From NCBI GenBank assembly GCA_963695435.1, contig OY968788.1:134330-198329 (forward strand): a stretch of 64,000 nucleotides of DNA. Reading direction: 5' to 3'. Below the pieces are notes generated by a model that was given only the letters and a program-made list of their open reading frames with translations, did no database searches and was not told where the DNA came from. Below are positions 2,833 through 44,057 of this stretch, piece by piece; within the stretch, counting starts at the first letter, position 1; every line of letters begins with the position of its first letter. The position numbers were made by a program, and so were the translations under genes. This stretch comes from an uncultured bacterium. Lineage in GTDB: Bacteria; Patescibacteriota; Kazan-3B-28.

Positions 2833-5388
2833 ATGAGTGAACTCATGCCGTTTGGTCCCAGACACGAGATAGATAAGATTCGCCGTCAAATGAAGGCGCG
2901 GTCTTTGGGTAGAAAAGCAAAGAAGAGGGTTTTCACTTTTCTGTCTCGGTATGGCATCAATACTCCGCCAAAGTTGTTTTTGGCGGGGTTTATCGCCGTT
3001 CTTTTTGTATTCAGTTTCACGATGGCGGTGGTTTCAGTTGGACTTCCGAACCCTGCTAGATTGGTAATTTATGCGGCGACTGATTCGACTAAAGTATTCG
3101 ATCGTGACGGTGCCGTACTTTATGACATCTCAAACGGGAAAAACCGCACAACGATTCCTTTTGAGCAAATGCCTGAAGATTTGAAGAATGCAACTATCGC
3201 TATTGAGGATAAAGATTTTTATCATCACAACGGTTTTGATATCAAAGGATTTTTGCGCGGGACAATTTTGAAACCACTTGCGGGGCAAGGTTTTCAGGGT
3301 GGCTCAACAATTACCCAGCAGTTTGTGAAAAATGCGTTGTTAAGTTCGGAGAGAAGTGTCTTACGCAAAGCGCGAGAATTGATTTTGGCATTTGAGTTGG
3401 AAGCGGTTTATTCCAAAGATAAGATTTTGGAATTGTATTTGAATGAGATTCCATACGGCAGCGGGGCATACGGGGCGCAACAGGCGGCTAAAATGTATTT
3501 TGGGAAAGATGCCAAGGATATTAATTTAGCAGAAGCAGCGGTGTTGGCGGCGTTGCCGCAAGCACCGGGGAGATATTCCCCTTACGGACAAAATCCGGAT
3601 TTGCTGATGTTGCGTAAAGATTTGGTTTTGGCGCAGATGGAAAAGCAGGGCTACATCACCAAGGCGGAGGAGGTGGATGCCAAAAAGACGGAAATAAAGT
3701 TTCAACCTCGGAGGGATTCGATTCGCGCTCCTCATTTTGTAATGTATGTAAAAGAATTGTTGGCGGCGAAGTATGGCGAAAAGGTGTTGGAAGAGGGTGG
3801 ACTGCAAATCACCACTACATTAGATATTGATAAACAAAAGGCGGCGGAAGATACAATCGCTAATTTAGCGGAATCCAACAAAACGAAATACAACGCAGGC
3901 AACGCGGCGTTAGTTTCAATCGATCCAAATACGGGAGAGATTTTGGCGATGGTGGGGAGTAAAGATTATTTTGATATGGAGGCGGAAGGAAATGTAAATG
4001 TGGCAATTCGTGAACGGCAACCTGGTTCGTCTATCAAACCGCTTGTTTATGCCACTGCGTTCAAAAAAGATTATGCTCCTGCAACAATGCTGGTGGATGT
4101 GTCCACTGATTTTGGTCAGGGGTATCGGCCACGCAACTATGACGGAGGTTTTCGCGGACCGATTTCTGCTCGGGAGGCGTTGGGCAACTCTATCAACGTT
4201 CCTGCGGTAAAGACATTGGCGTATGCGGGGGTGCAGGACACGATTGATACTGCGCATGATATGGGAATCACTACGCTAAACGGCGGAGCAGACAGATACG
4301 GACTTTCGCTCACATTGGGAGGCGGAGAAGTTACTTTGTTTGATTTGACTCGCGCGTATGGTGTGTTTGCGACGGGCGGAAATCTGACACCGACAATGGC
4401 AGTTTTGAAAGTGACGGACAAATTTGGTCATGTGTTGGAAGAAAACGAACCTGAAAAATCTAAGCAAGTTTTGGATCCGCAGGTGGCGTATTTAATAAAT
4501 AGTATTTTGTCGGATGACAGTGCGCGCGCTCGAGTATTTGGAATGGGCGGGCTACTGACGTTGCCTGGCAGAACAGTTGCGGCGAAGACGGGTACAACAA
4601 ACGATTACAAAGATGGTTGGACAATAGGCTACACTCCTGATTTGGTGACAGGAGTTTGGGCGGGGAATAATCACAACGAAGAAATGACTGCCTCATCAGC
4701 AATGGTGGCGGCGCCAATGTGGAATAGATATATGAAGTTGGCACTGGCTGGTGTACCAAATAAATCTTTCAGCAGACCTGATGGAATTTCGGATGTGATG
4801 GTGGATGCCTTGTCGGGCAAGTTGCCGGTTGAAGGTGTGACGCCAACAACAAAGTCAGAAGTGTTTGCGAGCTGGAGCGTACCGAAAGAAATGGACAATG
4901 TGCATGTGGTGAAAAAAGTAATGAAGAGCGACACCAGCAAATTAGCACCAGCAAATGCACCTGCGGAATTAACTGAAGATAAAGTATTTACTGTAATTCA
5001 TTCGGAACGGCCGAGTAGTTCAAATTGGGAAGGTCCAGTTCTGGCATGGGCGGCGGCAAATGGATATAACAATGTCCCAACGGAAACTTATTCTGGTTCG
5101 ATGGATGGGAGTGCGACGGCGGAAATTACTTTGACGAATCCGATAGAGGGGGCAACGGTTACGGGAGATTTGTTAGTTTCAGCGAGTGTTAGAGCGGGGG
5201 TAGGTGTGAAGAGAGTTGAGTTTTATTATGATAATTCGCTGAAAGGACAGGTGACAGGAGCGCCGTATCAATTTACGATTAAAGCTCCCAAGCAAGACGG
5301 GAAGACACATACCGTTAGGGTTAGATTGCTCAAGGCTGATAATAGTACTGCAGAGGATAGTGTAAGTATTGTTGCTGGTGGAGGATAA
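2833..5388 (+). CDS. class A penicillin-binding protein (transglycosylase + transpeptidase) with a C-terminal Ig-like extension
   Basis: GT51 motifs EDKDFYHHNGFD and GGSTITQQFVKN; transpeptidase SSIKP (SxxK) and KTGTTND (KTG). Confidence 0.9.
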   Translation: MSELMPFGPRHEIDKIRRQMKARSLGRKAKKRVFTFLSRYGINTPPKLFLAGFIAVLFVFSFTMAVVSVGLPNPARLVIYAATDSTKVFDRDGAVLYDISNGKNRTTIPFEQMPEDLKNATIAIEDKDFYHHNGFDIKGFLRGTILKPLAGQGFQGGSTITQQFVKNALLSSERSVLRKARELILAFELEAVYSKDKILELYLNEIPYGSGAYGAQQAAKMYFGKDAKDINLAEAAVLAALPQAPGRYSPYGQNPDLLMLRKDLVLAQMEKQGYITKAEEVDAKKTEIKFQPRRDSIRAPHFVMYVKELLAAKYGEKVLEEGGLQITTTLDIDKQKAAEDTIANLAESNKTKYNAGNAALVSIDPNTGEILAMVGSKDYFDMEAEGNVNVAIRERQPGSSIKPLVYATAFKKDYAPATMLVDVSTDFGQGYRPRNYDGGFRGPISAREALGNSINVPAVKTLAYAGVQDTIDTAHDMGITTLNGGADRYGLSLTLGGGEVTLFDLTRAYGVFATGGNLTPTMAVLKVTDKFGHVLEENEPEKSKQVLDPQVAYLINSILSDDSARARVFGMGGLLTLPGRTVAAKTGTTNDYKDGWTIGYTPDLVTGVWAGNNHNEEMTASSAMVAAPMWNRYMKLALAGVPNKSFSRPDGISDVMVDALSGKLPVEGVTPTTKSEVFASWSVPKEMDNVHVVKKVMKSDTSKLAPANAPAELTEDKVFTVIHSERPSSSNWEGPVLAWAAANGYNNVPTETYSGSMDGSATAEITLTNPIEGATVTGDLLVSASVRAGVGVKRVEFYYDNSLKGQVTGAPYQFTIKAPKQDGKTHTVRVRLLKADNSTAEDSVSIVAGGG

Positions 5389-5419: not shown

Positions 5420-5535
5420 TTTGTCATTCCAGCGAAGGCTGGAATCTATTTTTATTTAATTGTTTTGAAGCGCCGAATCGCGCTTCAGCGATTGTTACTT
5501 TCCGCTTGAGGAAAGTAACCAAAGTCGCTCGCCAG
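5420..5535. repeat. composite dispersed repeat: family D hairpin followed by family A (two hairpins gaagcgccgaatcgcgcttc and gttactttccgcttgaggaaagtaac)
   Basis: A near-identical ~85-bp copy lies at 43975-44057. Partial copies at 6863-6900 and 36598-36625. Confidence 0.8.
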
Positions 5536-6339: not shown

Positions 6340-6415
6340 TTAGGTCACTAGGTCACTAATGGACTTATGGTCTGTCTATTTGTCTATGAGTCTATTGTCT
6401 ATTATTCTACCCTTG
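6340..6415 (+). repeat. family C repeat with reiterated gtctat/tggtct sub-motifs
   Basis: taggtcactaggtcactaatggacttatggtctgtctatttgtctatgagtctattgtctatt. The reverse complement of 22395-22470 is closely similar. Confidence 0.6.
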
Positions 6416-6512
6416 CTATATCTTATCCAAGCTGTTAGAGTGGGCACACACAATCCTGCTGTCCAGCAGGATTAGTGGATAAATATAATAGACTAATTCA
6501 AGGAGAAATATC

Positions 6513-6765: not shown

Positions 6766-6862
6766 TATAGATTTTTTTGTTTTCTTGTCCTCGGGCTTGA
6801 CCCGGGGATCCAAACATTTTTTTATTTAGTTTTTCAAGGGTCTGCGCGACCCTTGTACCGCG

Positions 6863-6900
6863 GTTACTTTCCGCTTGAGGAAAGTAACCAAAGTCGCTTG
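6863..6900. repeat. family A partial copy (gttactttccgcttgaggaaagtaaccaaagtcgct)
   Basis: Identical core hairpin to those at 5497-5535 and 44021-44057. Confidence 0.75.
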
Positions 6901-7437: not shown

Positions 7438-7675
7438 TGAACTGCCGAGTGATATAAAAAGACCTAAACTTATTAGGGCTCTTAGTAGGGTTGGTTTTGA
7501 CATAAGTACACGAGGTGGCAACGGGACACATTATAAGGCTACTTGGCCCGTCACCCAGAAAGCCTTTTCTATCCCTATTAGATTAGATAAACAAACGCTT
7601 TATTACCTGTTGAAAGAGATTCAGATAGTCACAGGCGGTCAGGTTGATTGGGATACCATAAAAAACAATTTGTGA
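7424..7675 (+). CDS. HicA-like toxin (YcfA family)
   Basis: LIRALSRVGFDISTRGGNGTHYKAT matches the HicA motif (G-F...GSHhhf). Internal Met start chosen at 7424. Confidence 0.55.
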   Translation: MPSLSELPSDIKRPKLIRALSRVGFDISTRGGNGTHYKATWPVTQKAFSIPIRLDKQTLYYLLKEIQIVTGGQVDWDTIKNNL

Positions 7676-7701: not shown

Positions 7702-8379
7702 GTGGGGTATAATCTAGACATGAGCCAGCTCCCAGCAATACAAATTGTTTCTAAACAGCGAGTCTCTGATCACGGAGAGGTTTTTACATCCGAGAGGGAG
7801 GTAAACGCGATGCTTGATCTCGTAAAGCAGGAAACGGAGCGTATAGACTCACGTTTTCTTGAGCCGGCCTGCGGGACTGGTAACTTTTTAGTCGAGATTT
7901 TAAAAAGAAAGTTAGAAATAGTTAAAGGACGATATTCAAAGAACCAGATCGAATTCGAGCGTTATTCGGTCATCGCAATCTCGAGTATCTATGGAGTGGA
8001 CATCTTAGAGGACAATGTTATTGCATGTCGAGAGAGACTATATTCTGTTTTCGATGAGCACTATAACTCACTTTATACGGATAGGTGTAAAAAGGAATGC
8101 AAAGTAGCCGTCAGATTTATCTTGTCTCGAAATATATTATGGGGTGATGCCTTGACTTTTAAAGAGCCAAACGAAGAGGCTCGGCCAATTATTTTTTCTG
8201 AATGGAGCGCGGTAAACGGCAATCTGATCAAGAGGCGGGATTATACATTGGCTAATCTTCTTGAGAATCGGTCTCCCGAGGAAGGGACTTTGTTCTCTGA
8301 TATGGGGGACCGAGCTTTTGTTCCTAGACCAATTGCAGATTTCCCTTTGACACACTTTTTAGGCCTTGGAGTAGAATGA
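7702..8379 (+). CDS. Eco57I-type N6-adenine DNA methyltransferase N-terminal module (motifs X and I only; truncated paralogue of the next gene)
   Basis: GEVFTSEREVNAMLDL and FLEPACGTGNFLVEIL (motif I), YGVDILE. No NPPY. 4-bp overlap (ATGA) with the next ORF. Confidence 0.6.
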   Translation: MGYNLDMSQLPAIQIVSKQRVSDHGEVFTSEREVNAMLDLVKQETERIDSRFLEPACGTGNFLVEILKRKLEIVKGRYSKNQIEFERYSVIAISSIYGVDILEDNVIACRERLYSVFDEHYNSLYTDRCKKECKVAVRFILSRNILWGDALTFKEPNEEARPIIFSEWSAVNGNLIKRRDYTLANLLENRSPEEGTLFSDMGDRAFVPRPIADFPLTHFLGLGVE

Positions 8380-9880: not shown

Positions 9881-12385
9881 ATGAGTAAATTTTTTCCACA
9901 ACGGCCGGAGGCGAACCCAGCAATTTACGCCTACGAAGACACAAACCCACAATACGAGGGTTTATTAAAAGTTGGTTTTACCACTACGGATGCTCGAGCT
10001 CGAGTGGCACAACAATACCCAACACGACGCCCAGGGGTATTACCTTACAAGATAGTTTTTGAAGAATCGGCTATGCGCAATGATGGCACTATTTTAACTG
10101 ACCATGATGTGCATCGTTATTTGCGCAAAAAAGGTATCGCAAACCCCAAAGGAGAATGGTTTAAGTGCAGTATAAAGGAAATCACTGCAGCTGTATTGGC
10201 TATTAAGAGTGGCGTTAAGAACGAAGATGATCGGACTCTTAGTTTTAGCATGCGGCCAGAGCAAGAAGAAGCAGTAGAGAAAACTATTTCGTATTTTAAG
10301 AGCTTTAGTAAAGAGAACAAGGGTAAAACTCCACACTTTCTTTGGAATGCAAAAATGCGTTTTGGGAAAACATTCGCTACATATCAGTTGGCAAAAAAAA
10401 TGGGATGGAAAAAAATACTAGTACTTACATTTAAGCCGGCAGTGCAGAGTGCTTGGGATGAGGATCTTCAAACACACATCGATTTTAAGGGTTGGCAATT
10501 TATTGCACCAAATGGTTTAACATTTGGGAGAGCTAATAAGAAAAATCCTTTTGTGTGCTTTGGTTCATTTCAGGATTATTTGGGGAAAAATACATCAACA
10601 GGCGGGATTAAAACGAAGAATGAATGGGTGCATGCTACCAATTGGGATTGTGTGGTATTTGATGAATATCATTACGGAGCTTGGCGAGAGAATGCAAAGG
10701 ATTTATTTGAAGCAGAGGGGGAAAGAGAGTTGGAATTTGGAGAGGGGGAGGGTATTGAGTATTTTGATGAAGGTGCAATGCCGATCACTACTAACGCGTA
10801 TCTGTATTTGTCTGGTACGCCATTTAGAGCTATTGCGTCTGGTGAGTTTATTGAAGAACAAATTTTCAACTGGACCTATTCGGATGAGCAGCGGGCAAAA
10901 GAGAATTGGAAGGGTGAGCCAAACCCGTATGCTTCTTTGCCAAGAATGGTGATGCTGACTTATCAACTGCCTGATTCTATCCGTGAAGTTGCCATGAAGG
11001 GGGAATTTAATGAGTTTGATTTAAACCTCTTTTTTAGTGCGGAGGGACTAGGAAGGAATGCAAAATTTAAATATGAAGATGAGGTTCAAAAATGGTTGGA
11101 CTTGATTCGAGGCTCTTTTTCCGAAACAACGATAGATAATTTAAAATTGGGGGCAAAAAAACCACCATTACCTTTCTCACACGCACCTTTACTAAATGTT
11201 CTATCACATACATTTTGGTTCTTGCCAAGTGTTGCTTCTTGCTATGCGATGAGAAATTTACTTGAACAAAGGCAAAATAAGTTTTATCACAACTACAAGG
11301 TGATTGTTGCGGCTGGGACTAGCGCGGGAATTGGTGTAGCGGCGCTCCCGCCAGTACAGCAGGCAATGGAAGATCCTCTAAGCTCAAAAACCATAACTCT
11401 ATCTTGTGGCAAACTTACAACAGGGGTGTCGGTCAAGCCATGGACAGGGATTTTTATGCTACGTAATTCGTCAAGTCCTGAAACTTATTTTCAAGCGGCT
11501 TTTCGTGTACAAACGCCTTGGACCGTGAATAACCCTGATAGTAAATCGCCCAATAAAGAAGAGGTTATCAAACAAGAGTGCTATGTTTTTGACTTTGCGC
11601 CGAACCGAGCTCTCAGACAAATTGCCGACTACGGTTGCCGTCTGAATGTAAATGAGTCTAACCCTGAAAAGAAAATTGATGAATTTATCCATTTTTTACC
11701 TGTGCTTGCTTATGACGGTAGTGCCATGAAGCAAATTGATGCGGCAGGTATCTTGGATATGGCAATGAGCGGCACTACCGCCACCTTGCTTGCAAGAAGG
11801 TGGGAAAGTGCGCTACTGGTCAATGTCGATAACAACACCTTGCAGCGTTTGATGAATAACCAAGACGCGATGGATGCCTTAATGAGTATTGAAGGTTTCC
11901 GTAGTTTAAATAAAGACATTGAGACTATTATTAATAAATCGGAAGCTGTACAAAAAATAAAGAAAGAGGCAAACGATAAAGAGTTAACTCCCAAGAAAGA
12001 GAAAGAGTTGAGCAAAGAGGAGAAAGAGTACAAAAGTATAAGAAAACAGATTCAGGAAAAACTTATAAAATTTGCTACTCGCATTCCGGTATTTATGTAT
12101 CTAACTGATTATCGCGAGAGAAGCTTGAAGGATGTTATTACCAAGCTTGAACCAGGTTTATTTAAAAAAGTAACAGGTCTTTCTGTTAAAGATTTTGAAC
12201 TATTGGTTAGCCTTGGTGTTTTTAATAGCGCACTCATGAATGATGCGGTGTATAAGTTTAAGAGATATGAGGACGCAAGTCTAGCGTATACGGGTATTAA
12301 TAAGCATGAGGGTGAGGATATTGGTCTTTATGACACAGTTATCAGTAACAAAGAATATAGGCAGACATTTGAAAATCATGAATAA
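9881..12385 (+). CDS. T5orf172 (GIY-YIG-like) domain fused to an SF2/ResIII-type helicase; candidate restriction (Res-like) subunit
   Basis: N-terminus IYAYEDT..EGLLKVGFTTTDARARV..GEWFKCSIKEI (T5orf172 pattern). Helicase motif I MRFGKTF, motif II VVFDEYHYG, motif III LSGTPFR, motif VI QAAFRVQTP. K/E-rich C-terminus. Confidence 0.7.
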   Translation: MSKFFPQRPEANPAIYAYEDTNPQYEGLLKVGFTTTDARARVAQQYPTRRPGVLPYKIVFEESAMRNDGTILTDHDVHRYLRKKGIANPKGEWFKCSIKEITAAVLAIKSGVKNEDDRTLSFSMRPEQEEAVEKTISYFKSFSKENKGKTPHFLWNAKMRFGKTFATYQLAKKMGWKKILVLTFKPAVQSAWDEDLQTHIDFKGWQFIAPNGLTFGRANKKNPFVCFGSFQDYLGKNTSTGGIKTKNEWVHATNWDCVVFDEYHYGAWRENAKDLFEAEGERELEFGEGEGIEYFDEGAMPITTNAYLYLSGTPFRAIASGEFIEEQIFNWTYSDEQRAKENWKGEPNPYASLPRMVMLTYQLPDSIREVAMKGEFNEFDLNLFFSAEGLGRNAKFKYEDEVQKWLDLIRGSFSETTIDNLKLGAKKPPLPFSHAPLLNVLSHTFWFLPSVASCYAMRNLLEQRQNKFYHNYKVIVAAGTSAGIGVAALPPVQQAMEDPLSSKTITLSCGKLTTGVSVKPWTGIFMLRNSSSPETYFQAAFRVQTPWTVNNPDSKSPNKEEVIKQECYVFDFAPNRALRQIADYGCRLNVNESNPEKKIDEFIHFLPVLAYDGSAMKQIDAAGILDMAMSGTTATLLARRWESALLVNVDNNTLQRLMNNQDAMDALMSIEGFRSLNKDIETIINKSEAVQKIKKEANDKELTPKKEKELSKEEKEYKSIRKQIQEKLIKFATRIPVFMYLTDYRERSLKDVITKLEPGLFKKVTGLSVKDFELLVSLGVFNSALMNDAVYKFKRYEDASLAYTGINKHEGEDIGLYDTVISNKEYRQTFENHE

Positions 12386-12812
12386 ATTGAGACCGAATTT
12401 GCAGGCAGAGTTATTTAAATATCCTTGGGATGAGGTAGAGGCATGGGGCTGTAGTCGAGACCAGGCCAAATTGTTGTTCGATCAGGGCTTGGCATCATTT
12501 AACCCGGCCGAAAAAGAAGCATTCGAAGGATACGAGGTAAGAGAGTTAGTTTTTCTTAAGACTTTGTATTTCGATTCTGGTTTGCCCAAGGAGAATGTTT
12601 TAGCAATGTTGGCAGGTCTAGAAAAGCCATATAGTTATTCTTTTGATGAAATATATTGGAATTTTTATCGCAAGGAATGGAACTATCTTCCAGCACCAGA
12701 ACAACCAGAGATTGAAGAATTAGTTGATCAGCTTGTAGAGGACGAAGATTTTAGCCGCTTGAAGTCGGTAAAAGAATCCATCGAAGTGATATTAAAAGAA
12801 AATGAATCCTAA
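12378..12812 (+). CDS. hypothetical protein (144 aa), start overlaps helicase stop (ATGAATAA)
   Basis: ORF translationally coupled to the upstream gene. No recognisable motif. Confidence 0.45.
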   Translation: MNKLRPNLQAELFKYPWDEVEAWGCSRDQAKLLFDQGLASFNPAEKEAFEGYEVRELVFLKTLYFDSGLPKENVLAMLAGLEKPYSYSFDEIYWNFYRKEWNYLPAPEQPEIEELVDQLVEDEDFSRLKSVKESIEVILKENES

Positions 12813-12839
12813 ATATGCGGGGAAAATTAGAAGGAAAAT

Positions 12840-13562
12840 ATGGAAGATTTAAGATATATCCAAAGTGAAGAAAAGTTTTTAAACTATTCTTTTGATGTAT
12901 TGAAAAAATATTTCTGCGATGATCGAAAAAAATTTGACTTGTTTTACAACAACATTTTGGGAAAAAAGAAAAATAAATTCCTTAAAATTGCCTCATTTTA
13001 TAAGTTTTTCGTCGTTGATGGTAGATTCATTGTCGAAAATAATAAACCCGATGATTACATAGATTACTTGGATCACACATATAAATATATTGCTATATTT
13101 TCCTTTATCGAAGACTTATATACGACAGAAGAATATGAAGATTTTTATTCATGGTTAAGGAATAAGAAAACAAACATTAAACTTCCTATCAAAAACACGG
13201 ATGCACTAGACGCATTGCACAAACAATATTTAGATATGCACGGTTCAACTCAAAAGGCAGTCAAGTTTTTTGAGTCATTAGATGATGGAACGAAAAAATA
13301 CATAAGCGATAATTTTAAGATCGGGAAAAATGAAATGACGCAACCACTGCTTTTTGCTCAGTTGGCGGGGTTTCTTTATCAAATTAGAAGTGATTTTATT
13401 CACAAATCGAGAATCATCGCTCAATTTAATGAAGGTACTACTATGCACACAGTTAGAAATAAACTAGTTACAAATGATTTAGATTTTGAAAAAATTAAGA
13501 CGATTTTTGAAGAAGGATTTTTATTATTCTTTGGTTACAAAAAAACTAGGGGTTTTTCTTGA
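12840..13562 (+). CDS. hypothetical protein, very AT-rich; possible HEPN-like (Rx4H) Abi-type protein
   Basis: GC content is markedly lower than in flanking genes. C-terminal IRSDFIHKSR contains an R-x4-H motif. Confidence 0.4.
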   Translation: MEDLRYIQSEEKFLNYSFDVLKKYFCDDRKKFDLFYNNILGKKKNKFLKIASFYKFFVVDGRFIVENNKPDDYIDYLDHTYKYIAIFSFIEDLYTTEEYEDFYSWLRNKKTNIKLPIKNTDALDALHKQYLDMHGSTQKAVKFFESLDDGTKKYISDNFKIGKNEMTQPLLFAQLAGFLYQIRSDFIHKSRIIAQFNEGTTMHTVRNKLVTNDLDFEKIKTIFEEGFLLFFGYKKTRGFS

Positions 13563-13595: not shown

Positions 13596-14882
13596 ATGAA
13601 AGTTACGAAATCACAGGGAGAGAAGAATAAGGTTAGATTATCCATTGCGCTGGAGGCGTCTGAATGGAACGCCATTTTGGATAAGGCGAGTGGGAAGGTG
13701 AGTGAGGGGTTGAAGGTGGATGGGTTTAGGGAGGGGAAGGCGCCGAGGGATATTGTGATTGCGAAGGCGGGCGAAGCCCGCGTGATTAGTGAAGCGATTG
13801 AGTTGGCGGTGGAGCAGTATTATCCAATGGCGGTGAAGGAAGAGAATTTGAAGCCCATTGCGTTCCCGAAGATTTCTGTAGAAAAAGGTAATTTGACTGA
13901 GCCGTTGGAGTTTACGGCGGAAGTTGCCATATTGCCGGAAGTTGTTTTGGGAGATTATTCGAAAATCAAATTGACGAAGAAGACAGACGAAGTCGGTGAT
14001 GCGGATGTGGAGGCCGTTTTGAAGAATTTGCAGAAGAAGGCGGTGGAGTTTCAGGAAGTGGAGCGCGTAGCGCAATTGGGAGATTGGGCGGAAATTGATT
14101 TTGAAGGATTTGTTGAAGGTAAGCCATTTGAAGGCGGTGCATCCAAGAAGCATCCGTTGATTTTGGGTGATAAAGTTTTTATCCCCGGTTTTGAAGAAGG
14201 ATTGGTTGGTTTGGGGAAGGGCGAGGAAAAAGAAATCGAAGTGACTTTCCCGAGTGATTATCACAACAAAGATTTAGCGGGGAAGTCAGCGAAATTTAAG
14301 GTGAAGATGAATTTGGTGAAGGCGGTAAATTATCCTGAAATAAATGATGAGTTTGCGAAGAAGCATGCGGGGCAGGAGAGTTTGGAAGTTTTGAAGACGG
14401 ACATCAAAAAATATTTGGAAGAGGAGTCGGCGAAAAAAGCGGAGGAAACTTTGCGGGAAAATGCGTTGCTGGAATTAGTAAAAGTCGCGAAGATTGATTT
14501 GCCTGAAGAGATGATTGAGCAGGAATTGGATAGTATGGTGCATGACCTCAAACATCAGGCGGAACATAGTGGCATGAGTTTTGAAGATTATTTGAAAAAA
14601 GCGGGAGTGAATGAAGCTGGGCTGAAAGCCCAATGGCGGGAACAGGCGGAAAGTCGGGTGCGGATTGGTTTGGCGCTGGAAGCTTTTCGCGATAAAGAAG
14701 GAATTTCGGCTGACGATTCGGATGTTGATGCGGAAATAAAGAAACTGAAAGTGATGTACCCGCAGGACGGGGAGAACATCGATAAAGAATACGGCAAAGG
14801 TTCGAATGGACGCAGTAAGTTGCAGAGAATGTTGGGAAGTCGGAAAGCCATCGACAAATTAGCCGAACTCTTCACGAAATAG
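13596..14882 (+). CDS. tig: trigger factor
   Basis: GFREGKAP, FIPGFEEGLVGLGKGEEKEIEVTFPSDYH (PPIase/FKBP-like segment), overall three-domain layout. Confidence 0.9.
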   Translation: MKVTKSQGEKNKVRLSIALEASEWNAILDKASGKVSEGLKVDGFREGKAPRDIVIAKAGEARVISEAIELAVEQYYPMAVKEENLKPIAFPKISVEKGNLTEPLEFTAEVAILPEVVLGDYSKIKLTKKTDEVGDADVEAVLKNLQKKAVEFQEVERVAQLGDWAEIDFEGFVEGKPFEGGASKKHPLILGDKVFIPGFEEGLVGLGKGEEKEIEVTFPSDYHNKDLAGKSAKFKVKMNLVKAVNYPEINDEFAKKHAGQESLEVLKTDIKKYLEEESAKKAEETLRENALLELVKVAKIDLPEEMIEQELDSMVHDLKHQAEHSGMSFEDYLKKAGVNEAGLKAQWREQAESRVRIGLALEAFRDKEGISADDSDVDAEIKKLKVMYPQDGENIDKEYGKGSNGRSKLQRMLGSRKAIDKLAELFTK

Positions 14883-14936
14883 GGTAGAGGAGCAAGCAAA
14901 AAGGAACTTTTGTTTTTCTATTTGTTTTATCTTTGC

Positions 14937-14975
14937 ACAATTAGCTGAACGGCCGTTCAGCTAATTGTGAGGGTA
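14937..14975. repeat. 35-bp palindromic element caattagctgaacggccgttcagctaattgtg (copy 1)
   Basis: Perfect palindrome ttagctgaacggccgttcagctaa. A second copy lies at 15510-15545. Confidence 0.8.
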
Positions 14976-15045
14976 TTTTTTAAATATTTGTGTGTTTTTT
15001 GATATTTTTCAATATTTTTGAAGTAATTTGGGGGTATGATAAAAG

Positions 15046-15517
15046 GGTGAAGAACAGTCGGGGGGCGTACAGACTGATGAAAGCATTGTTCCGTTTGATG
15101 GACGGCAATGGTGTAGTCCGACTCAATAAACATTGGCAAGAAAAACTTCGCGACCCTCGCCAACATGGCGATGGTCGCTCGTTTAAATATTTGCGTGATG
15201 CGGAATATCTTATTGAGCTGGGGCCGGATAAATATGAAGTGACGGATTTGGCAAAAATTAACTTATTGAAAGAAATTGTTAAGACGCGTAAGAGGGACGG
15301 GAAGTTGAGGCTTGTGATTTTTGATATTCCTGAAAGATTGAAAGCGAATAGAAATTTTTTCCGTCGGCATTTGGTGGATATGGAATTTCAGATGAGACAG
15401 CAAAGTGTATGGGTATCGCCATATCCATGCGAGGACTTAGTTGCTTTGGCTGTGAAATATCACGGTTTGCAGAAATATGTCGAACTAATAGTCGGCAAAG
15501 TAGGCACAATTAGCTAA
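15046..15517 (+). CDS. winged-helix regulator with C-terminal Cas2-like (PaaX-like) domain
   Basis: C-terminal LRLVIFDIPERLKANRNFFRRHLVDMEFQMRQQSVWVS follows the Cas2/PaaX_C pattern (LVxYDI...R..FRR.L...GF...Q.SVW). Start is ambiguous (GTG at 15046 or ATG at 15077). Confidence 0.55.
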
Positions 15518-15545
15518 ACGGCCGTTCAGCTAATTGTGTAGGGGA
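15510..15545. repeat. 35-bp palindromic element copy 2 (overlaps stop codon of the preceding gene)
   Basis: caattagctaaacggccgttcagctaattgtg. Confidence 0.8.
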
Positions 15546-15637
15546 TTTGAGGGGATGGAGCTTTAGTTTTTCTTGACTGGGAGTGGGTTTTTTGGTATAT
15601 AAAGAGTGGCAACTTGCCAATTAGGAGGTGATTAAAG

Positions 15638-16162
15638 GTGCGTCCGATAATCATCATTATTATTGTCTTGCTGACTCTTACTCTCGGCTTTTTATCTGTT
15701 CGGGCTCAAGCCGAAGAGAAGCATGTCGTGAAAGGACCAGTAAAACACATCAAAGGCGACACTATGGTTTTGGGTAACAAAGCGAAGCCGTTTGAAAAAG
15801 TTCCCCCTAAAGAGCAAGCGGCAAACCCCAATACTTCTTTGCCACAGTCTTCGAACAATGGCAGCCATAGCCAGACAAACTCGCCCCCTCGGGAACGCGC
15901 GTGGTTTCCACATCCATGTCGTTTGACCAACTTTATGGGTTGGCTGTTCTGGATAGGGCTTGTCCTGTTAGTTTTAGCCGGAGTGACTGCTTTGGGAATG
16001 GGCGGTGGTTCGGGAGGTGTTTTGGCCGGTATTGGATTGGTTACTCTTATACTTTGGCTAGTGATTCTTTTGCTCCCGATATTAATCGGCATTGTAATCG
16101 TTATTGTCGTCCTTGGCAGTTTGGGGAAACCTGATATTATCTGCTTCTGTTTTCGCAGATAG
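15638..16162 (+). CDS. hypothetical membrane protein (poly-Ile signal/TM, Ser/Pro-rich linker, C-terminal TM helices)
   Basis: aggagg RBS 7 nt upstream of a GTG start. The antisense ORF 15706..16350 is judged spurious. Confidence 0.55.
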   Translation: MRPIIIIIIVLLTLTLGFLSVRAQAEEKHVVKGPVKHIKGDTMVLGNKAKPFEKVPPKEQAANPNTSLPQSSNNGSHSQTNSPPRERAWFPHPCRLTNFMGWLFWIGLVLLVLAGVTALGMGGGSGGVLAGIGLVTLILWLVILLLPILIGIVIVIVVLGSLGKPDIICFCFRR

Positions 16163-16321: not shown

Positions 16322-16921
16322 ATGAGTTTGATTCCGATGGTGATAGACAAGTCCCCGATGGGCGAGCGGGCGTACGATATTTACTCCCGACTTTTGAAAG
16401 ACAGGATTATTTTTATCGGGGGGCCGATTGATGATGAACTGGCGAATTCGGTAATTGCCCAGCTTTTGTTTTTGGAGAGTGAAGATTCGAAGAAAGATAT
16501 TGCGTTGTATATCAACAGCCCCGGTGGTTCGGTAAGTGATGGGATGGCGATTTACGACACGATGCAACACATCAAGCCTGACATCTCAACGATTTGTGTC
16601 GGGATGGCGGCATCAATGGGCGCGATTTTGCTGGCGGGCGGAGCGAAGGGAAAAAGATTTGCTTTGCCGAATTCCCGCGTGATGATTCATCAAGTTTTGG
16701 GTGGAGCGCAGGGACAGGCGAGTGATATCGAAATTCACGCCAAAGAAATTCTGAAATGGAAGAGTAAATTGAATGACCTTTTGGCTCGTCATAGCGGACA
16801 GAAATTGGATAGGATTGAAAAAGATACTGACCGTGACTTCTTTATGGAAGCGCCGGAAGCGAAGGAATACGGGATTATCGACGAGGTATTAGAGAAGAGG
16901 ATTCCTGCGGGAGTTAAATAA
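16322..16921 (+). CDS. clpP: ATP-dependent Clp protease proteolytic subunit
   Basis: [26 protein letters not shown] (catalytic Ser), MIHQ. Extended -10 tgatataat at 16242-16250. Confidence 0.92.
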
Positions 16922-36503: not shown

Positions 36504-37138
36504 ATTTTTCTTTTTCTTTATTCTTTTTTGTCATTCTGAACTTATTTCAGAATCTTTTTATTTATTTTTTCCAGCACTCACGCCGTGCTGATGGTGGCGG
36601 TTACTTTTCTAGAAAAGTAACACAAAAGTTCCCGCCAGTCGTCGGGATTGTTCGCCCCTGCCTACCGGTAGGCAGGTAACAAAATTAGCTTTCTTCGCTA
36701 TCGGCAAACTCCCCCGATAGCCATCGGGGTCAAACATGCCTTCGCCTGCGCTAATTTTGTCGGCTCAATACATCCCTCCTCCAATGGCGGACTAAAGAAA
36801 GGATGGGGGATAAAAAACAGTCCTGCACTTGGGGCAGGACTGCTTGGTTCGGGTGGAGATGAGCTACAACCGTATCTGGCGAAAGGCGCGGTGGTACTTT
36901 TCCGAACCAACGGACAAAGGTGCGGCTGTTTTTTGCGATGGGAGGAGTTGGAAATTATTTTTTCCAGAAGTCCAGTGTCGGGTGTGTGAATATCAAGGGG
37001 GGATGAGGGGTAGACCGAGTATCCCTAGCAGGAGGGCTGGTCTACATTGAAGCCGACATTGGAATATCTCCGCACCTAATCGCAAAAATGTGCCGCAATG
37101 AATTGTAGCACTTATCTGATAGTAGGCAATAGAGGGTC
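36504..37138. other. 635-bp non-coding region dense in palindromes/hairpins (candidate structured ncRNA or repeat cluster)
   Basis: No ORF above 75 aa. Hairpins gtcattctgaa..ttcagaatc, gttacttttctagaaaagtaac, cctgcctaccggtaggcagg, cagtcctgcacttggggcaggactg. Confidence 0.4.
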
Positions 37139-43975: not shown

Positions 43976-44057
43976 TTTATTTAATTGTTTTGAAGCGCCG
44001 AATCGCGCTTCAGCGATTGTTACTTTCCGCTTGAGGAAAGTAACCAAAGTCGCTCCC
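43975..44057. repeat. family A copy 2 (two-hairpin element)
   Basis: tttatttaattgttttgaagcgccgaatcgcgcttcagcgattgttactttccgcttgaggaaagtaaccaaagtcgct is near-identical to 5452-5535. Confidence 0.85.

Follow-up and report, generated by a model that had tools for sequence, protein, structure and literature searches.

A small PaaX-like gene bracketed by genome-specific palindromes between tig and clpP: a candidate self-regulating cassette of candidate-phyla-radiation bacteria

What is a single small gene, enclosed on both sides by nearly the same long palindrome, doing between tig and clpP? The question is raised by a stretch of 64,000 nucleotides (the window in what follows) from contig OY968788.1 of an uncultured bacterium of the Patescibacteriota (lineage Kazan-3B-28), in which a gene for a protein of 156 amino acids, called here gene X, lies downstream of tig and is flanked by two palindromes (Table 1). 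An earlier note, made from this one sequence, had remarked on the palindromes but could not see what is the main point, i.e., that the palindrome pair is a hallmark of a whole gene family and that its arms are specific to each genome. The explanation that we favor, with a probability of about 0.55, is that of a self-regulating accessory cassette, in which the PaaX-like protein, as a dimer, occupies both palindromes and keeps its own gene repressed.

By profile searches and a predicted structure, the product of gene X is a PaaX-type protein lacking the C-terminal ligand-binding domain and made of a winged helix and a Cas2-like dimerisation domain, which agrees with the Cas2-like or PaaX-like winged-helix protein proposed in the earlier note. 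The Pfam model PF20803, PaaX_M (“PaaX central Cas2-like domain”), matches it with an E-value of 2.6e-17 (63.1 bits, cut-off 24), and the precomputed PaaX_M domain is present in all the close homologues. Neither the Pfam model of the PaaX N-terminal domain nor PaaX_C matched the protein, which stops about 15 residues past the Cas2-like domain. When a profile of 19 homologues was compared with the sequences of the PDB, the type II Cas2 chains 8ia4 and 6jhz were found at E 4e-4 over the β1-α1-β2 region. In the AlphaFold2 model (predicted local distance difference test score of 86) residues 1–70 form helices and a β-hairpin wing, and Foldseek matched the model to Mycobacterium tuberculosis Rv0674 (3kfw) over its full length (149 columns), to type II-A Cas2 (probability 1.0, root mean square deviation 2.5–3.3 Å over ca. 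77 residues) and to Escherichia coli PaaX (8a39, 119 columns). The F, D, P and E of the F-D-I-P-E motif are invariant in the 19-sequence alignment, as is Q-x-S-V. A public protein of 146 amino acids (P0001) is 100% identical to the product and begins at the ATG at 15077. The true start is probably the GTG at 15047, ten codons before, because the N-terminal K-x-S-R-G-A-Y-R-L-M (K-N-S-R-G-A-Y-R-L-M in the window) is kept in six homologues.

The family to which this protein belongs is large. An exhaustive profile search retrieved 6,058 clusters (50% identity) at E ≤1e-3 and 3,879 at 1e-10, the best 150 representatives being 127–259 amino acids long. The metagenomes scanned yielded at least 588 confirmed relatives, and 80 loci from among them were examined; among the loci sampled this mini-PaaX family was present only in candidate-phyla-radiation genomes. 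The closest homologue of gene X in a collection of 5.8 billion proteins was at most 71% identical, and Tig homologues at 80–94% were plentiful. We found no description in the literature searched of a stand-alone mini-PaaX family or of its palindromes. One contig (L093) carried two paralogues of the family within 4 kb (3800–4366 and 7902–8285), the second running off the end of the locus.

The two palindromes of the window are near-identical copies with one mismatch, as had been remarked before, although they measure 34 bp and not 35 and the coordinates first given were off by one (the direct repeat reaches 35 nt when the G before the palindrome is included). The stop codon of gene X (TAA, 15515–15517) was correctly said to be overlapped: it is part of the left arm of the downstream palindrome, and the last four codons are also covered. 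Searching the window for CACAATTAGCTGAACGGCCGTTCAGCTAATTGTG with up to three mismatches gave these two matches only, and none in 100 shuffled sequences; half-site and outer-arm searches of the window found nothing beyond the two known copies. A palindrome scan of a genome-contig collection lacking the source genome gave just two chance matches (Solirubrobacterales and Myxococcales). Long palindromes without a loop are otherwise rare in the loci of the family, where the others have the usual hairpin form, an 11-bp stem and a 4-nt loop. The palindromes are thus specific to the gene and not generic, the alternative that the earlier note had wanted excluded.

The same pairing was found across the family. 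For each of 63 non-redundant family genes with enough flanking DNA, the region upstream was compared with the end of the gene and the score of the best ungapped direct repeat was taken, with 133 other genes from the same loci as controls (the calls of open reading frames, ORFs, are crude in these metagenomic loci). A score of 17 or more was reached by 44/63 family genes and by 5/133 controls (Mann-Whitney p 3e-22). Homologues at 54–71% identity sit in varied conserved neighborhoods, each with a palindrome pair of its own: after tig (L001), after mraZ-rsmH-ftsL-ftsI (L005), between rpsP-khpA and trmD (L007 and L011) or ahead of the gene of a class II tRNA synthetase and mreB (L013). The palindromes are about 30–46 bp long, with one pair proper to each locus and arms that differ between genomes and match within a genome. 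The upstream one ends 8–310 nt ahead of the start of the homologous region, while the center of the downstream one falls, in most loci, between 26 nt before and ca. 83 nt after the stop codon. Counting all copies within about 4 kb on each side in 39 loci, there were exactly two in 31, three in seven and four in one. Nothing else accompanies the gene regularly: across 84 loci no neighbor family was conserved (the commonest was found in 9/84, on either side and either strand), neither cas1 nor a recurrent cas gene was found, and linkage to paa or aromatic catabolism genes was absent, the neighbors being genes such as tig, clpP, trmD, ftsI or those of tRNA synthetases.

Some loci carry more copies than the pair. 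Short palindrome arrays, with a start-to-start distance of 65–75 nt (a repeat of ca. 34 nt plus a spacer of ca. 31–41 nt, near the dimensions known from CRISPR), were found in L005 (4458–4811) and L012 (4816–4999); in L012 three copies precede gene X, and in L005 two extra copies follow it, with a near-consensus promoter (TTGACT, 17 nt, TATAAT) between the third and the fourth. In three other loci a third locus-specific palindrome brackets a cargo gene upstream of gene X, giving the order palindrome, cargo, palindrome, gene X, palindrome (Table 1).

The anatomy of the site was derived from 39 loci, i.e., 156 half-sites. Counting from the center, positions 1–4 are conserved as RCGR/YCGY (the slash marking the dyad), with C at position 3 in 154/156 half-sites, G at position 2 in 140/156 and an arm-to-arm symmetry of 0.99 at position 3; variants of the center include ACGGCCGT, ACGATCGT, GCGATCGC, GCGGCCGC and GCTATAGC. 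Positions 5–8 show no sequence preference and the minimum of symmetry (0.73–0.83, with 0.73 at 6–7). Positions 9–12 are A/T-rich, and positions 13–16 are genome-specific with symmetry rising to 0.91–0.95, after which it declines to 0.76, 0.64 and 0.50 at positions 17–19. In several loci (L005, L011, L012, L023 and L039) the middle is asymmetric between a symmetric center and symmetric outer arms, and the asymmetric middle has the same sense in all the copies of one locus. These two contact zones, separated by about one helical turn in each half-site, would fit the pattern of a dimer reading one face of the duplex. Reading of the duplex is favored over a hairpin stem or an intrinsic terminator because of this two-zone symmetry with an often asymmetric middle. 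The statistics of symmetry, like those of covariation below, are only partly corrected for shared ancestry.

The copies of one locus evolve together. At the variable positions they are on average 0.85 identical, compared to 0.32 between loci. Two syntenic pairs illustrate the point: for the window and L001 palindrome identity is 0.94–0.97 within a genome and 0.76–0.82 between genomes, and for L007 and L011 it is 0.85–0.94 within and 0.56–0.62 between.

A residue of the protein changes together with the site. In a mutual-information screen of alignment columns against site positions in the 39 loci, the pairing of the central base with the residue between Q and S of Q-x-S-V-W was among the strongest (mutual information 0.93, z 6.1). 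In the AlphaFold2 model this residue sits at the tip of the β2-β3 hairpin of the Cas2-like domain. Lys occupies the tip in 17/20 loci with a central A (CGA/TCG), whereas the 14 loci with Gln, His or Gly all have a central G (CGG/CCG); as a two-by-two count, A with Lys was found 17 times, A without Lys three, another base with Lys two, and neither 17. On a neighbor-joining tree from which that column had been left out, about 6–7 changes occur in each character, and there are nested switches, L011 (Lys, A) lying within a clade of Gln and G, and L047, L076, L052 and L072 (Gln or His, G) within the group of Lys and A. Such covariation would place the Cas2-like dimer at the dyad and makes the hairpin tip a candidate for reading the central base pair.

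The upstream copy is, in addition, placed as an operator would be. Hexamers resembling a −10 box (at least 5/6 matches to TATAAT) peak 20–40 nt past the center of the upstream palindrome, with 34 compared to 9 at the downstream copy, over a background of ca. 3–6 per 10-nt bin; from the position of this peak, the −35 position falls inside the right arm of the upstream palindrome. Examples of this placement are L011 (TATAAT, 6 nt, ATG), L007, L034, L043, L054 and L078.

Putting these elements together, we propose that one protein dimer binds each 34-bp palindrome. The Cas2-like dimer would lie over the RCGR/YCGY center, with the tip of the β2-β3 hairpin reading the central base pair, and the two winged helices would touch the outer arms, which are genome-specific, with the wing at the A/T-rich positions 9–12 and the recognition helix at 13–17. 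Placed over or against the −35 region, the upstream site would let the protein turn down its own gene, as is the case for PaaX and its Px promoter. In E. coli, PaaX recognises TGATTC(N27)GAATCA, of ca. 39 bp, and blocks its own promoter by occlusion of RNA polymerase (PMC9493321). The same protein would also occupy the 3′ site, most likely to close a loop that keeps the gene repressed, to shield the cassette as a roadblock from transcription of its neighbors, or both; in some loci, this control may extend through a further copy of the palindrome to a small gene alongside. X itself is a shortened relative of regulators already known as a family, and the mechanism proposed for it is likewise of a known kind; what appears to be undescribed is the stand-alone family, the bracketing genome-specific palindromes with a conserved center and the apparent reading of DNA by the Cas2-like domain.

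Candidate-phyla-radiation bacteria have tiny genomes with few recognised regulators. If the model is true, the family would provide hundreds of natural, mutually orthogonal protein-operator pairs on one scaffold, a data set for a DNA-recognition code and a source of insulated parts for synthetic biology, and the Cas2 fold would have a DNA-reading role exerted through a β-hairpin tip at the dyad. The cassette would also be a minimal one, ca. 0.65 kb gained or lost between conserved housekeeping genes.

Several points weigh against self-repression through the two palindromes. The first is that differences between the copies of a locus tend to occur at mirrored positions (33 observed against ca. 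14 expected, not reached in 2000 shuffles), with about 13 compensated pairs (17 minus four from L041, where the downstream center was misplaced). Each copy thus tends to keep its own symmetry. Template switching within quasipalindromes, by which one arm is copied from the other, is a known mutational route, and either it or selection for a hairpin or cruciform would explain the pattern; simple selection on half-sites does not predict it, and therefore one of the two has to be added as an assumption. The covariation rests on 39 related sequences, is not fully corrected for phylogeny and is a correlation, not proof. In the window itself the candidate −10 is some 30 nt beyond the upstream palindrome, farther than in most loci, because of an insertion of ca. 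22 nt. The downstream palindrome has no association with a promoter (no enrichment in −10-like hexamers), about a third of the loci have a convergent gene next to it (by crude ORF calls), and the role of the 3′ site, be it loop, roadblock or control of a neighbor, is a guess. Perfect palindromes of 34–48 bp exceed, in length and exactness, what a repressor needs, and regulation of nothing but itself brings no evident benefit to the cell. The invariant Asp of the Cas2 motif F-D-I-P-E leaves a catalytic role possible. Finally, the fold, the site pairs and their anatomy, the promoter overlap, the covariation and the pattern of presence and absence are computed results, but that X binds its sites and represses its gene, what the second site does and how the cassette moves are all inferred.

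Palindrome, gene X and palindrome are a discrete accessory cassette, patchily distributed among candidate-phyla-radiation genomes. In the six relatives L098–L103, whose Tig is 64–94% identical, gene X was absent from the fetched DNA (six-frame profile search), and no palindromes were found at the place corresponding to the cassette. The earlier note had spoken of an insertion into a conserved tig-clpP linkage, and had suggested to look for an empty gap in related genomes. The cassette is indeed inserted with respect to the closest relatives, but the slot is variable: in L098–L103 the gap is not empty, measuring 0.56–3.6 kb with different, unrelated genes in each, and tig and clpP were non-adjacent in all the seven related genomes examined (these six and L001). 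In L099 the T-tract of the tig terminator directly abuts the TTGACT promoter, whereas in the window the cassette separates them. The 17-nt repeats at its borders match at 15/17 positions, a score reached by 19/5000 shuffles, and the window cassette therefore looks like an insertion with target duplication, or like one whose repeat could mediate its precise loss. The third codon positions of gene X have a GC content of 0.446, compared to 0.531 in tig and 0.540 in clpP. L001, also with gene X after tig (Tig 67.5%, ClpP 90% and X 71% identical), leaves room for another history, of ancient presence and repeated loss. Motifs shared after tig were tried as an independent insertion point in L001; they scored 14 and 15–16 against shuffle maxima of 13 and 15–16, which is too weak, and they were not used. 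In L100, where gene X is absent, the tig-clpP gap holds a solo perfect palindrome of 24 bp (AATATTGAACGGCCGTTCAATATT, 7556–7579) with the 14-nt core TGAACGGCCGTTCA of the window palindromes, which may have been left behind by a lost cassette or may be where a paralogue binds in trans.

Presence and absence among close relatives, the border repeat and the solo palindrome are also what would be expected of an autonomous mobile element, in which X would be a nuclease or recombinase of Cas2 fold guided by its winged helix, and the palindromes subterminal sites of recognition or cleavage like the hairpin ends of the IS200/IS605 TnpA or the hix sites of Hin. The homologues in different conserved operons, the invariant Cas2 Asp motif, the arm variants that appear shuffled among the four half-sites when L043 is compared with L057, the mirrored compensatory changes (suggestive of hairpins) and the palindrome-bracketed extra genes would likewise suit it. 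We nevertheless consider it unlikely. Target duplication is not general, as only 5/37 loci exceed the 95th percentile of the controls and the repeat of the window is an individual case. The empty sites of L098–L103 have no palindrome at the point of insertion, so that integration did not proceed by palindrome-by-palindrome recombination. Syntenic pairs down to ca. 66% DNA identity keep gene X in place and orientation, with no alignment pieces on the minus strand, so there is no trace of inversion. The gene is single in the 64 kb and usually occurs once per locus, and no relatives were found in the IMG/VR viral contigs. No Pfam transposase, Y1_Tnp included, matched the protein, TnpA was not in the top 50 Foldseek matches, and the family alignment contains no invariant His-x-His or Tyr and no known recombinase motif. 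The two-zone symmetry with its asymmetric middle also suits binding to duplex better than hairpin stems.

A variant that we regard as slightly more doubtful still is an autonomous element of an unrecognised kind, in which the winged-helix-targeted Cas2-fold protein would cut, join or duplicate the palindromes, of the size of CRISPR repeats, that bracket its own gene. If true, Cas2-like proteins would have a repeat-directed DNA transaction outside CRISPR, PaaX-type regulators could be linked in evolution to Cas2 and to repeat arrays, and a protein acting enzymatically on its own repeats would define a new type of mobile element.

The palindromes could have nothing to do with X, being hairpins that act as transcript 3′ ends or terminators, as RNase III sites or as insulating stabilisers next to an unrelated regulator or nuclease. 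They do fold stably as single-stranded DNA (−15.3 kcal/mol, z −7.4, upstream and −10.5 kcal/mol downstream), a consensus scan weakly flags the upstream one as terminator-like with the tail AGGGTATTTT, in 26/33 loci a co-directional gene ends ahead of the upstream copy and the downstream copy follows X, and the mirrored compensatory differences already described would be natural in hairpins. We find this improbable. Independent hairpins give no reason for the two copies to share their sequence (0.85 compared to 0.32 between loci) or for a protein residue to covary with the central base. The arm mismatches have no wobble bias (36 G-T, 32 A-C and 85 transversion-type), the symmetry dips at positions 5–8 with asymmetric middles of 6 nt in some loci, and sequence conservation is highest at positions 2–4, beside the would-be loop. 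The bases just past the stem are A-rich on the 3′ side and not T-rich (in left-arm orientation position 18 is T in 75/156 half-sites), in L007 the downstream copy lies inside a coding region 40 nt before trmD, no Rfam family matched, and the ordinary hairpins of the same loci are different. Of the two functions suggested in the earlier note, operators or terminators, the first is therefore favored by site anatomy, −10 placement and residue covariation, and the second disfavored by the A-rich flank and the L007 copy.

We attach the same low probability to the idea that X is a single-chain effector of defence or of toxin-antitoxin-like type, a Cas2/VapD-type nuclease kept in check and autorepressed by its fused winged helix, with the palindromes as operators. 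Autoregulation through palindromic operators is typical of toxin-antitoxin-like modules. The Cas2/VapD fold with its invariant Asp, the weak Cas2 matches in PADLOC, the patchy accessory distribution in variable regions beside restriction-modification genes and a gene that stands by itself, no partner being conserved across 84 loci, are compatible with it. Yet PADLOC returned no defence-system model other than Cas2 itself, the same domain in PaaX is described only as a dimerisation motif (PMC9493321), and the 3′ palindrome is left unexplained. This explanation largely overlaps with the self-repressing cassette rather than competing with it.

The remaining candidates can be dismissed quickly. 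A CRISPR locus does not fit a Cas2 score under the curated cut-off (TIGR01573, the cas2 equivalog, 19.4 bits against 24.5) and 84 loci without a recurrent cas neighbor; Tandem Repeats Finder found no CRISPR-like array in the whole window, as the earlier note had said, while its label of a “domesticated” Cas2-fold regulator was not borne out. Phage origin was rejected with no relatives in IMG/VR and no PHROGs match, a known RNA with sub-threshold, microRNA-like hairpin matches only in Rfam, an RNA hairpin on one strand with 36 G-T against 32 A-C mismatches, an invertible segment with the constant orientation in syntenic pairs, and a replication origin or terminus element with a GC skew that is positive throughout the window and switches nowhere. 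A multi-gene system has no recurring neighbor family to support it (at most 9/84 loci), a generic terminator or dispersed repeat does not agree with two copies in 64 kb, both flanking X, and two per locus in 31/39, and the downstream palindrome as operator of the next gene shows no −10 enrichment, with about a third of the next genes convergent by the crude ORF call.

Table 1. Features of the window around gene X and of three loci with a bracketed extra gene.
Feature	Position	Strand	Remarks
tig	13596–14882		Upstream of gene X
Left copy of 17-nt direct repeat, GGAACTTTTGTTTTTCT	14903–14919		3′ half and T-tract of the tig terminator
Upstream palindrome, proposed operator	14936–14969		CACAATTAGCTGAACGGCCGTTCAGCTAATTGTG, perfect 17 + 17, spacer-free, 34 bp; center ACGG/CCGT
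Putative extended −10, TGATATTTT, of gene X's own promoter	15000–15008	+	Position matches TGATATAAT of L001
Gene X, winged-helix plus Cas2-like (mini-PaaX) protein	15047–15517	+	156 amino acids
F-D-I-P-E codons	15320–15334	+	Cas2 β1 signature with conserved Asp
Gln-119 codon (P0001 residue 109)	15401–15403	+	x of Q-x-S-V-W, β2-β3 hairpin tip
Downstream palindrome	15505–15538		Copy of CACAATTAGCTGAACGGCCGTTCAGCTAATTGTG with one mismatch (G to A, left arm)
Right copy of 17-nt direct repeat, GGAGCTTTAGTTTTTCT	15557–15573		Directly before TTGACT
Resident promoter of the variable downstream slot	15573–15601	+	TTGACT, 17 nt, TG-preceded TATATA; context, outside the cassette
Membrane-protein ORF	15638–16162		174 amino acids; downstream of gene X
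clpP	16322–16921		Downstream of the membrane-protein ORF
Region with bracketed extra gene, L033	2691–4355		Unknown protein of 216 amino acids
Region with bracketed extra gene, L072	2470–3735		Membrane protein of 123 amino acids
Region with bracketed extra gene, L076	1600–3015		GNAT-type acetyltransferase of 150 amino acids

The surroundings of tig are variable on both sides. After tig, the promoter TTGACTGGGRGYGGGTTTT is conserved in L098, L099 and L100 with a different gene following in each; as TTGACTGGGRGYGGGTTTTTTGG-TATA it is located at 6466–6500 in L098, 6349–6378 in L099 and ca. 6856–6880 in L100, besides the window copy (Table 1). The genes behind it in four related genomes are non-homologous, coding for 174, 223, 127 and 178 amino acids, and the promoter seems to be fixed while the gene behind it is exchangeable. 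Just upstream of tig the window has a low-GC island (9881–13562, GC 0.29–0.40 compared to 0.45 in the window) with two matchless ORFs and a protein of 834 amino acids that matches a type IIG restriction enzyme/helicase (PADLOC E 4e-29). Restriction-modification genes are found at the same place in L098 (methyltransferase and ResIII), L100 (helix-turn-helix, MvaI_BcnI and methyltransferase), L103 (Eco57I and T5orf172/ResIII) and L001 (methyltransferase), so that by gene content this side of tig is apparently a hot spot of restriction-modification genes.

Two other classes of inverted repeat were seen. One is a hairpin, GTTACTTTCC-GCTTGA-GGAAAGTAAC, with at least three copies in the window, plus a variant without loop, GTTACTTTTCTAGAAAAGTAAC (window 5494–5519, 6862–6889, 44019–44044 and 36600–36621); L103 has a related one (GGTTACTTTG...CAAAGTAACC) immediately downstream of tig (5338–5363). 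It may be a dispersed hairpin or terminator element specific to the clade. The other consists of CCTGCC...GGCAGG palindromes (e.g., CCTGCCTACCGGTAGGCAGG), a class distinct from the palindromes of gene X, that recur in unrelated candidate-phyla-radiation loci (window 36657–36676; L098 ca. 6365–6390, in the spacer downstream of tig; L017 81–112; L093 5542–5559 and 6792–6809).

How does the cassette compare with systems already known? A gene of ca. 150–190 amino acids between similar palindromes that covary with the protein, in variable contexts, recalls the tnpA of IS200/IS605, RAYT and REP, integron attC and hin/hix. Unlike IS200/IS605, RAYT and hin, X has no HUH/Tyr, serine or tyrosine recombinase fold or motif, its sites are not dispersed and no inversion was seen between syntenic genomes. 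Compared to integrons, the neighbors in the 84 loci include no recurrent integrase, and no attC cores turned up, although no explicit search for them was made. The RTP of Bacillus subtilis is a small autoregulated dimeric winged-helix protein with Ter sites next to its own gene; in contrast, the window has no GC-skew switch, the cassette is accessory and its sites are symmetric and genome-specific. With type II-A Cas2 (5zyf, 5xvn, 8ia4) X shares the ferredoxin-like fold, the hydrophobic-D-I of β1 and the Q-x-S-V-aromatic motif, and its flanking repeats resemble those of CRISPR in being of similar size, palindromic, direct, the same within a locus and variable between loci. It differs in having no cas1, array or other cas gene, in that the “spacer” is the gene itself (0.5–0.9 kb), and in the fused DNA-binding domain. 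In architecture there is a likeness to PaaX of E. coli and Pseudomonas (8a39, 3l09; responsive to phenylacetyl-CoA) and to the uncharacterised Rv0674 (3kfw), in which an N-terminal winged helix is also followed by a Cas2-like middle domain. PaaX likewise has a long two-fold-symmetric site with widely spaced contacts and a site at its own promoter, where by analogy autorepression is predicted for X. PaaX is twice as large, ca. 300 amino acids with the PaaX_C ligand domain, whereas X has 156, no PaaX_C and no paa genes nearby, and its sites are near-perfect, genome-specific palindromes placed on both sides of the gene.

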